Source: Thermoproteaceae archaeon
Lineage (GTDB): Archaea; Thermoproteota; Thermoprotei; Thermoproteales; Thermoproteaceae
Direction of reading: 5' to 3'
Length of the DNA stretch: 16,035 nucleotides
Assembly (NCBI GenBank): GCA_020833025.1
Contig: JAJHRB010000036.1
Span: 1 to 16,035 of the forward strand
The translations under genes were made by a program, and so were the position numbers. Shown one piece after another: positions 2,762 to 3,627 of the stretch. Position 1 is the stretch's first letter, and each line of letters begins with the position of its first letter. The notes beneath the pieces were generated by a model. It did not search any database. It was not told where the DNA came from and worked only from the letters and a program-made list of their open reading frames with translations.

Positions 2762-2888
2762 AGGCGGCCCCTCCCTTTTTCCCGCGCCAATTTCAGCCTG
2801 GAGCGCGGCGAGGCTCATACGAATGCGCATCGCTCTTTCCGGCACTGCGATCACAGAGGGGGACAGAGTGGTGCGGCCGCCGGGATTT

Positions 2889-2905
2889 CTAGGCGGGTTT
2901 TCCCT
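2889..2905 (-). other. tRNA-Phe intron 2 (17 nt), position 56/57 in the T-loop
   Basis: AGGGAAAACCCGCCTAG contains a GGG/CCC mini-hairpin, a central helix GCCT pairing exon GGGT (51-54), and bulges TC|A and AG|A. Confidence 0.8.
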
Positions 2906-2922
2906 GAACCCGGGACCGCCCG

Positions 2923-2962
2923 CTACAGGCCCCGGGAGTTTCCTGGCGCCGCTCCCGGGGCT
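2923..2962 (-). other. tRNA-Phe intron 1 (40 nt), position 39/40
   Basis: Only this junction restores the G31-C39 and G30-C40 pairs. Internal perfect 10-bp helix GCCCCGGGAG/CTCCCGGGGC begins one nt after the 5' site. It is followed by 4 nt (CTGT, partly pairing GAAG) and an AG|C bulge, i.e. relaxed bulge-helix-bulge (BHB) geometry. Confidence 0.75.
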
Positions 2963-3113
2963 GTCTTCAGCCGGGCGCTCTCCCGCTGAGCTACGGCCGC
3001 CGGCTTTACGTGGCTGCTGGAACTTAAATTTTTCTCTCTCTCTACTCTCCGGCGCCCGGCTCCGTTAAAGGCGGAGGCGAGGCTCCCGGCCCGCGGACTC
3101 CCGCCTTAGTAGC

Positions 3114-3127
3114 TAAAAACTTAAATA
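3114..3127 (+). promoter_or_regulatory. BRE/TATA promoter upstream of the tRNA-Leu 3' fragment
   Basis: CTAAAAACTTAAATA. Spacing by analogy with the Ser and Phe tRNA promoters predicts a start near 3146-3150. Confidence 0.7.
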
Positions 3128-3145
3128 GCGCGGACAAGAGGTCAA

Positions 3146-3234
3146 GCGGCGCCCGCCACCACCCGCCCAGAGGGGCAGGGTTGAGGTCCCTGTGGCGTAG
3201 GCCTGCGTGGGTTCAAATCCCACCCCCCGCACCA
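3146..3234 (+). tRNA. tRNA-Leu(GAG) 3' portion only (about position 22 to CCA, 3171-3234) with a 25-nt C-rich leader; candidate split-tRNA half
   Basis: 3171-3234 has AGGGG, CAGGG-TTGAGGT-CCCTG anticodon arm, GGC-GTAG-GCC variable arm, GTGGG-TTCAAAT-CCCAC T-arm, CCCCCGC-A-CCA. No GCGGGGG acceptor strand or CCCGAG D-stem lies upstream. Confidence 0.85.
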
Positions 3235-3627
3235 CCCTCCTCCGGGCACTCCCTCCGGCTACCCACCCAACCTGACCGGGGTTAATTTCATACGTCAGCC
3301 GTCCCTGGTGCGCTGGTTCAAGGCATCTGGCGTCAACAGCGCGGCACGGGCCGGGGCGCGGCGCTCAGCCCGAGCCCCGCAGTCCCTGCCCTCCCGGCGA
3401 TAGCCAGCGCGCTCGCCTCTCGTGCGTCAGGGCGGCCGCTAGGGCCTTCCGTACCTTGCGAAGCTGCCACGACCGCGCCCGTGATCGGTCTGTTAAGCTG
3501 AGAGCCCCCATGCACGAGTCGAGATGCGTGTCAGCACCGCAGTGCGTGAGGTGCAGCGGGAAGGGCGCCGCCGCGGCCGCGATCTAACTGATGCCAATCT
3601 TTTTATGCAGCGTTGCGAGCAGGCGCA

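Follow-up and report, generated by a model that had tools for sequence, protein, structure and literature searches.

The window analysed here, a stretch of 16,035 nucleotides, is an entire contig (C102, 16 kb) of a Pyrobaculum MAG of 1.56 Mb in 126 contigs, with 62.6% GC and 94% completeness, which is congeneric with Pyrobaculum sp. WP30. The locus under study is flanked by housekeeping genes (PyrI, NurA and a NOG1-type GTPase), with no integrase among them. A tRNA-Phe(GAA) gene at 2873–3000 (−) has at least two and probably three interruptions, near positions 37/38, in the variable region and in the T-loop, the last being an intron reading GGGAAAACCCGCCTAG. On the forward strand, a BRE/TATA element (TAAAAACTTAAATA, 3114–3127, +) is followed by a GC-rich leader of 25 nt (GCGGCGCCCGCCACCACCCGCCCAG, 3146–3170, +), by the 3' exon of a tRNA-Leu(GAG) reaching from A22 to the discriminator A73 (3171–3231, +), by a genome-encoded CCA (3232–3234, +), as is encoded in all Leu genes of this genome, and by a downstream flank (CCCTCCTCCGGGCACTCCCTCCGGCTACC, 3235–3263, +) common to two further Leu 3' halves, those with the anticodons UAG and CAG. 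The exon, assigned from its class II tRNA-Leu sequence, holds the 3' strand of the D-stem, an anticodon arm CAGGG/UUGAGGU/CCCUG with the anticodon GAG at 3183–3185 (+), a long variable arm, a T-arm GUGGG/UUCAAAU/CCCAC and the acceptor 3' strand CCCCCGC; it differs from the unsplit Leu gene of contig C100 only within the anticodon arm (positions 32–38). The acceptor 5' strand GCGGGGG and the 5' part of the D-arm were not found anywhere in the 16-kb contig, in agreement with the preliminary description, which had read 3171–3234 as a tRNA-Leu from about position 22 to CCA without its 5' part.

The promoter is of the AAA(G/A)CTTAAA type that stands upstream of the intact tRNA genes of this genome. 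Its TATA begins 25 nt before 3146; the same type of element begins 28–36 nt before +1 in the intact genes. In the other split pieces (n = 5) the distance, measured to the first base that is paired or belongs to the exon, is 26–29 nt where our scan detected the element; the scan left that of one 5' half (half A, see below) undetected, so that this promoter was read by eye. The GAG promoter is near-identical to that of the UAG 3' half, and the promoter region of a CAA 3' half resembles it as well. A transcription start near 3146 had been proposed from the BRE/TATA at 3114–3127; the element is of the tRNA type, and pairing of the leader begins exactly at 3146. We also considered whether the start of the leader, GCGGCGC, could be the degenerate acceptor strand of a complete cis tRNA; this was rejected, with only 5 of 7 pairs, no D-arm and 19 bits.

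ARAGORN left the GAG locus unreported, as did the Rfam tRNA model at its gathering score (19.2 bits for this locus); run genome-wide, ARAGORN mis-called several disrupted genes. Across the whole genome only 19 Rfam matches reach that score, and most tRNA genes of the genome are therefore interrupted or split. The codons read by a GAG anticodon, CUC and CUU, make up 50% of the Leu codons and ~5% of all codons in the long ORFs. No second GAG-bearing Leu sequence is present in the 1.56 Mb assembly (94% complete); the expectation that an intact Leu(GAG) gene would be missing was thus upheld, GAG occurring at the window locus only.

Where, then, is the beginning of this tRNA? The Leu 5' exon GCGGGGGTGCCCGAGCCAGGTCAA occurs in exactly three copies in the assembly, one in the unsplit Leu(UAA) gene on contig C100, which is the only intact Leu gene in the assembly, and two as stand-alone copies on contig C89. 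These two 5' halves, A (C89:55050, −) and B (C89:44350, +), comprise positions 1–21, and each has its own TATA and a GC-rich trailer. A separate 5' half of the form GCGGGGGTGCCCGAG...GG... with its own TATA had been predicted from the window, and both pieces answer to it. The arrangement goes beyond one 5' half, being a combinatorial Leu system of two 5' and four 3' halves. In addition to the GAG half, a promoter and leader stand in place of the 5' exon in a CAG 3' half (C89:53558, −) and a UAG 3' half (C89:48505, +), and a CAA 3' half with its own TATA is found on contig C34 (C34:22705, +; region 22645–22790), its leader ending in ...CCGCCGCCCGCCC-GACU-CA↓A (arrows mark splice sites), in which GACU pairs fully with GGUC. 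The assembly thus contains five Leu 3' ends, the C100 gene and the GAG, CAG, UAG and CAA halves. Anticodon-loop introns in the C100 and C34 genes are read as 34/35 introns and yield UAA and CAA; their motif has an H helix GGGC:GCCC with bulges UU↓U or UC↓U and AC↓A. The full set of five Leu isoacceptors is covered only if the halves are used.

The trailer of a partner had been expected to be complementary to 3146–3164. It does pair, but the real sequence of trailer A, GGGGCGGGUGGCGGGUGCUGC, is not the exact reverse complement; an ungapped genome search with the exact reverse complement of the leader gave a match beside the 5' half and otherwise GC-rich noise. For the GAG–A duplex, the leader segment 3146–3160 (+) forms 15 contiguous base pairs with the trailer, followed by a CG/A (2x1) internal loop, the helix GGG:CCC with leader CCC at 3162–3164 (+), and one unpaired G; this register contains two G-U pairs and leaves GCCC free. 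Duplex energies were calculated between the trailer and the leader minus its last 6 nt, omitted here since the splice motif requires them. The GAG leader reaches −39.7 kcal/mol with trailer A (15 bp + 3 bp) and −31.5 kcal/mol with trailer B. The CAG leader likewise gives −37.3 kcal/mol with trailer A, the UAG leader gives −46.3 kcal/mol with trailer B and −30.9 kcal/mol with trailer A, and the CAA leader gives −41.4 kcal/mol with trailer B, so that A is the preferred cognate trailer of GAG and CAG, and B that of UAG and CAA. Among 3000 random 31-nt genome stretches, none was as good as the GAG value (mean −14.4, sd 5.2, best −36.5), and the cognate values of CAG and UAG were likewise reached by 0 of 3000 random genome 31-mers. 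Since halves A and B give the same exon, either partner would yield the correct tRNA. The GAG 3' half and the 5' halves are on different contigs, linked by binning and complementarity alone.

Could the GAG locus be a dead remnant, a functionless 3' tRNA fragment that arose through a deletion or as an att duplicate when a virus or plasmid integrated? Such 3' fragments do occur in this genome: positions 30–76 of tRNA-Ser(CGA) are copied at C17:~30–96 (−), at a distance of 10.4 kb from the intact gene, which has the same orientation (C17:10494–10581, −), and also on contigs C78 and C69. In addition, three of the Leu 3' halves share about 25–29 nt of downstream flank, in which the 16-mer CCGGGCACTCCCTCCG is found exactly only after the GAG, UAG and CAG 3' halves. 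The fragment on C17, which resembles an att site duplicated by an integrated element, contrasts with the Leu halves. There is no intact Leu(GAG) gene to be duplicated, the anticodon of the GAG half is unlike that of its paralogues, and an integrase is absent beside it. The promoter lies upstream at tRNA spacing, the complementarity of the leader to the trailer of a 5' half exceeds that of any random genome stretch tested, and the 3' splice geometry of a homologous cis intron is kept. Furthermore, the exon is undecayed (100% identity to other Leu genes outside the anticodon arm) and CUC/CUU codons are heavily used. We therefore regard a dead remnant as very improbable.

An ordinary cis gene with a very long intron, in which the 5' exon is far upstream, unjoined in the assembly, and one long precursor spans both, seems at first sight suggested by contig C89: half B is followed in the same orientation by the UAG half after 4.1 kb, and half A by the CAG half after 1.4 kb, which resembles giant introns, and for tRNA-Asp of Aeropyrum pernix a low-level read-through precursor is on record (PMC3218864). 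At the window locus, however, the 3.1 kb of contig upstream has no 5' exon and carries tRNA-Phe and tRNA-Ser on the opposite strand, and the GAG 3' half has its own promoter. Moreover, the four 3' halves outnumber the 5' halves, of which there are only two. This explanation is thus most unlikely, and with no 5' exon nearby the GAG half can only work in trans.

We consider it highly probable that window positions 3114–3234 constitute an independent gene for the 3' half (positions 22–76) of tRNA-Leu(GAG) that is joined in trans. This reading is based on the gene pieces, the promoters, the complementarity, the lack of an intact GAG gene and the homology to a cis intron of relatives.

A cis intron of 28–38 nt is found at the same D-loop site in relatives, with ends homologous to the trailer and the leader. 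Four Leu genes of Pyrobaculum sp. WP30 carry it, and it is also present in three other Pyrobaculum MAGs and in Thermoproteus sp. AZ2. One example reads ...GGTCAA↓AGGGGCGGGTGG-TT-GCCCGCCCGGCTAG↓AGGGGC, or, divided by element, GGTCAA↓AGGGGCGGGTGG TT GCCCGCCC GGCT AG↓AGGGGCAGGG. The first 12 nt of trailer A are common to the WP30 introns, and trailer B together with the UAG leader matches both intron arms of Pyrobaculum MAG 2016_B02_str_C_12, including its T that forms a G-U pair. Among metagenome contigs, a scan with the exact pattern of the GAG leader gave no match, and a looser pattern returned 52 cis-intron genes and two genes cut at a contig edge, with no further split versions. Across these 52 contigs the intron opens with A, T or C after a constant GGTCAA, which places the end of the 5' exon at A21 and the start of the 3' exon at A22. 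The 16 other genomes of the genus that were searched have only cis or intron-less Leu forms. As the relatives have a cis intron at exactly 21/22 with homologous ends, the split is a broken intron.

The structure that we propose for the cis intron consists of the D-stem, GGUC paired with the 4 nt before the final AG, AA or AU, and a stem GGG...CCC. Applied to 8 distinct cis introns, it leaves 90% of cells paired, against 33–57% in slid controls; the central helix is 100% paired in these introns (with GU/GC and UG/UA variants), and compensatory changes are seen at three pairs of the stem. The GAG leader has the same order of elements and matches the cis introns position by position: CCC (3162–3164), then GCCC (3165–3168, +), which forms one strand of the central 4-bp helix with GGUC at tRNA positions 18–20a as its partner and one U-C mismatch, and AG↓A, where AG (3169–3170, +) and A3171 (+) form the 3' splice-site bulge, as assigned from structure and cis-intron homology. 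The extent of the leader itself, which would be the removed half of the intron, is likewise defined by the duplex, the structure and the cis-intron homology. The preliminary description had noted a 3' splice geometry of 4 nt plus AG, and the same geometry is present both in the cis introns of relatives and in T-loop introns of this genome. These T-loop introns form a family of ~17 nt (GGGGAGAGCCCGCCCAG or similar) that interrupts many tRNA genes, at C28:35930, C29:15245, C74:17801, C89:48814, C89:52520, C125:3487 and window position 2897 (−); their 3' end, ...CCCGCC(C/T)AG↓A, is shared with the Leu leaders.

A relaxed splice motif can be drawn for the GAG pair, with an H helix GGUC:GCCC containing a U-C mismatch, a 5' bulge of 4 nt and a 3' bulge AG↓A. 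All members have six D-loop bases between the D-stem and the central helix and a 5' bulge of 4 nt. This is not a strict bulge-helix-bulge, and the strand GCCC here stands against GGCU, GGCC or GACC in relatives. Plain MFE co-folding leads to non-cloverleaf structures and does not favour the splice-competent fold, which has −79.6 kcal/mol compared to −82.9 kcal/mol for a rival register (GCCC with trailer GGGC) and −91.2 kcal/mol for the MFE. Because energy does not single out the splice-competent fold, the junction rests on the homology to cis introns. Judged from their genes, the relaxed geometry seems to be one that sister species must splice for four of five of their Leu tRNAs.

How might the GAG tRNA be assembled? 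From the sequences, we infer transcription and annealing of the Leu halves, exact cleavage sites and ligation as follows. The GAG gene would be transcribed from its own BRE/TATA into an RNA that opens with the leader of ~25 nt. This leader may anneal to the trailer of a 5' half (positions 1–21) that is transcribed on its own, with half A as the best partner and half B as a possible substitute. Annealing would rebuild the D-loop intron, with the D-stem, the helix GGUC:GCCC, a 5' bulge AA↓A(G), the GGG:CCC and 15-bp pairings and the 3' bulge AG↓A. The splicing endonuclease would then cut after A21 and before A22, and RtcB would join the exons into the predicted junction ...GGUCAA-AGGGGC... (GGUCAA-AGGGGCAGGGUUGAGG). 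Halves A and B may also serve the CAG, UAG and CAA 3' halves; with two 5' halves serving four 3' halves, four of the five Leu isoacceptors would be assembled in trans. The genome encodes an EndA catalytic subunit (C61:40093–40611) and RtcB (on C60), and a structural beta subunit of EndA was not detected in the genome with Pfam models. The RtcB match at C60:4614–7331 (+) falls into two blocks, covering profile positions 2–55 and 46–426, that are ~450 codons apart within one frame of 961 aa, and this interruption looks like an intein insertion.

A C/D-box-like sRNA at C89:~61690–61760 (−) has a guide TGCCCCTTTG complementary to CAAAGGGGCA, the ligated 21/22 junction, and matches each Leu half alone at 9 of 10 positions. 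The same junction sequence is also present in the unsplit Leu(UAA) gene. A second guide of this sRNA is complementary to CTGTGGCGTA of tRNA-Leu.

The arrangement is not confined to the MAG under study. In another genus of the Thermoproteaceae, the MAGs JALWZH01 and WANN01 each have one Leu 5' half, with the trailer GGGCGGGCGGCAGAC..., and promoter-bearing Leu 3' halves split at the same 21/22 site, four in JALWZH01 and three in WANN01 among the loci fetched. Taken together these 3' halves carry CAA, GAG, UAG and CAG, with a leader ending in ...CGCCGCCCGCCCGGCAAG↓A, and those with GAG, UAG and CAG are additionally interrupted by an anticodon-stem intron. With the same architecture in two independent assemblies, the design exists outside the genome studied here. 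This also bears on whether the split is an artefact of assembly or binning, with contigs that are chimeric at the repeated tRNA-Leu sequence or pieces that derive from different organisms, a concern that arises from a fragmented MAG (126 contigs) in which the Leu exons are repeats. However, the flanks are unique to each of the six pieces, all of which have a promoter and a non-tRNA leader or trailer, contig C89 alone holds two complete 5'/3' sets, and the two MAGs of the other genus, which show the same architecture, were assembled independently. We consider an artefact extremely unlikely.

What broke the intron? The DNA between the C89 halves, in the 4.1-kb and 1.4-kb spacers, has 52.6% and 58.2% GC, respectively, compared to 63–69% in the flanks, and its ORFs have no Pfam, PHROGs or NCBIfam match (ORFan). 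A TnpB/Cas12f-like ORF (PF07282; C89:55543–56826, −) is located just upstream of half A. This suggests that foreign DNA was inserted into the intron loop, a mobile origin being pointed to only by the low GC and the TnpB-like ORF. The four 3' halves share promoter and leader, and three also share 23–29 nt of downstream flank. They look like copies of one cassette with a changed anticodon, or like products of gene conversion; the downstream flank shared by the GAG, UAG and CAG halves marks these as paralogous cassettes. Protein synteny with the Leu loci of WP30 is weak, the downstream neighbour being kept only at the CAA half, and a simple rearrangement model could therefore not be shown. Taken together, we lean slightly towards a scenario in which nearly all Leu decoding (four of five isoacceptors, ~98% of Leu codons) proceeds via combinatorial trans-splicing of two 5' and four 3' pieces. 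This system would be of recent origin, dating from the disruption of a mobile D-loop intron by foreign low-GC DNA, and would have spread from isoacceptor to isoacceptor as a promoter–leader–exon cassette with anticodon switching; a second Thermoproteaceae genus would have either arrived at this design by itself or inherited it, in a version with a single 5' piece. Since standard tRNA finders miss split Leu genes, such genomes seem to be without tRNAs for the commonest Leu codons.

Published lists comprise 29 trans-spliced tRNA genes with 12 anticodons in seven genomes (PMC4033280). The split isotypes known are iMet, His, Lys, Gln and Glu in Nanoarchaeum, Gly, Glu and Ala in Caldivirga, Asp in Aeropyrum and Thermosphaera, and Lys in Staphylothermus (PMC3218864, PMC4390854, PMC4033280). 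Neither these lists nor a full-text literature search contained a split tRNA-Leu, a split class II tRNA, a D-loop junction or a case from Pyrobaculum or the Thermoproteaceae. A 2019 paper predicted 'hybrid' Leu(TAA) genes composed from halves of other tRNAs in other genera, which are unrelated.

A close counterpart is Caldivirga maquilingensis (Fujishima et al. 2009, summarised in PMC4390854 and PMC4033280), a free-living crenarchaeon of the same order (Thermoproteales), in which each piece likewise has its own promoter, the GC-rich leaders and trailers correspond to introns of related species at the same position, and one constant piece is common to several anticodon-bearing pieces of synonymous tRNAs. 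Its family is Thermocladiaceae in the usual taxonomy, versus Thermoproteaceae here. In contrast to the split and tri-split Gly, Glu and Ala tRNAs of Caldivirga, the present case concerns Leu, a tRNA of class II, with the junction at 21/22 in the D-loop, two 5' pieces for four 3' pieces, and a cis-intron progenitor within the same genus. In Nanoarchaeum equitans (Randau et al. 2005, summarised in PMC4033280), 5' and 3' halves are similarly joined in trans through complementary leaders, with one half common to two partners (tRNA-Glu); this organism, however, is a symbiont with a reduced genome, its split tRNAs are iMet, His, Lys, Gln and Glu, and it is not known to have a cis-intron sister form.

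The split tRNAs of Aeropyrum, Thermosphaera and Staphylothermus resemble the C89 arrangement in that the halves are close together in the same orientation, a promoter inside an apparent long intron leads to a GC-rich leader of 20–25 nt, and the split is read as recent and possibly brought about by mobile DNA. They differ in splitting at 37/38 and 30/31 with a canonical hBHBh' motif and in affecting a single tRNA each, whereas here the junction is 21/22, the motif is relaxed and the GAG half is on another contig. They were verified by experiment, with RT-PCR for all of them and northern blots at least for A. pernix tRNA-Asp.

Finally, the leader and trailer relate the Leu halves to the transposable non-canonical introns of Thermoproteales (Sugahara 2008, Fujishima 2010; PMC4033280), as they are the ends of such an intron; the leader 3' end ...CCCGCCCAG↓A also ends T-loop introns in at least seven tRNA genes of the genome. 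Unlike those introns, the intron is here broken into two transcription units. The mechanism is that of known trans-splicing, and Leu, class II, the D-loop junction and Pyrobaculum/Thermoproteaceae are new to the published lists. In this case the cis-intron form in sister species stands beside the broken form, with low-GC ORFan DNA between the halves. This bears on the long-standing debate over an ancestral versus an intron-derived origin of split tRNAs; here the split is clearly derived.
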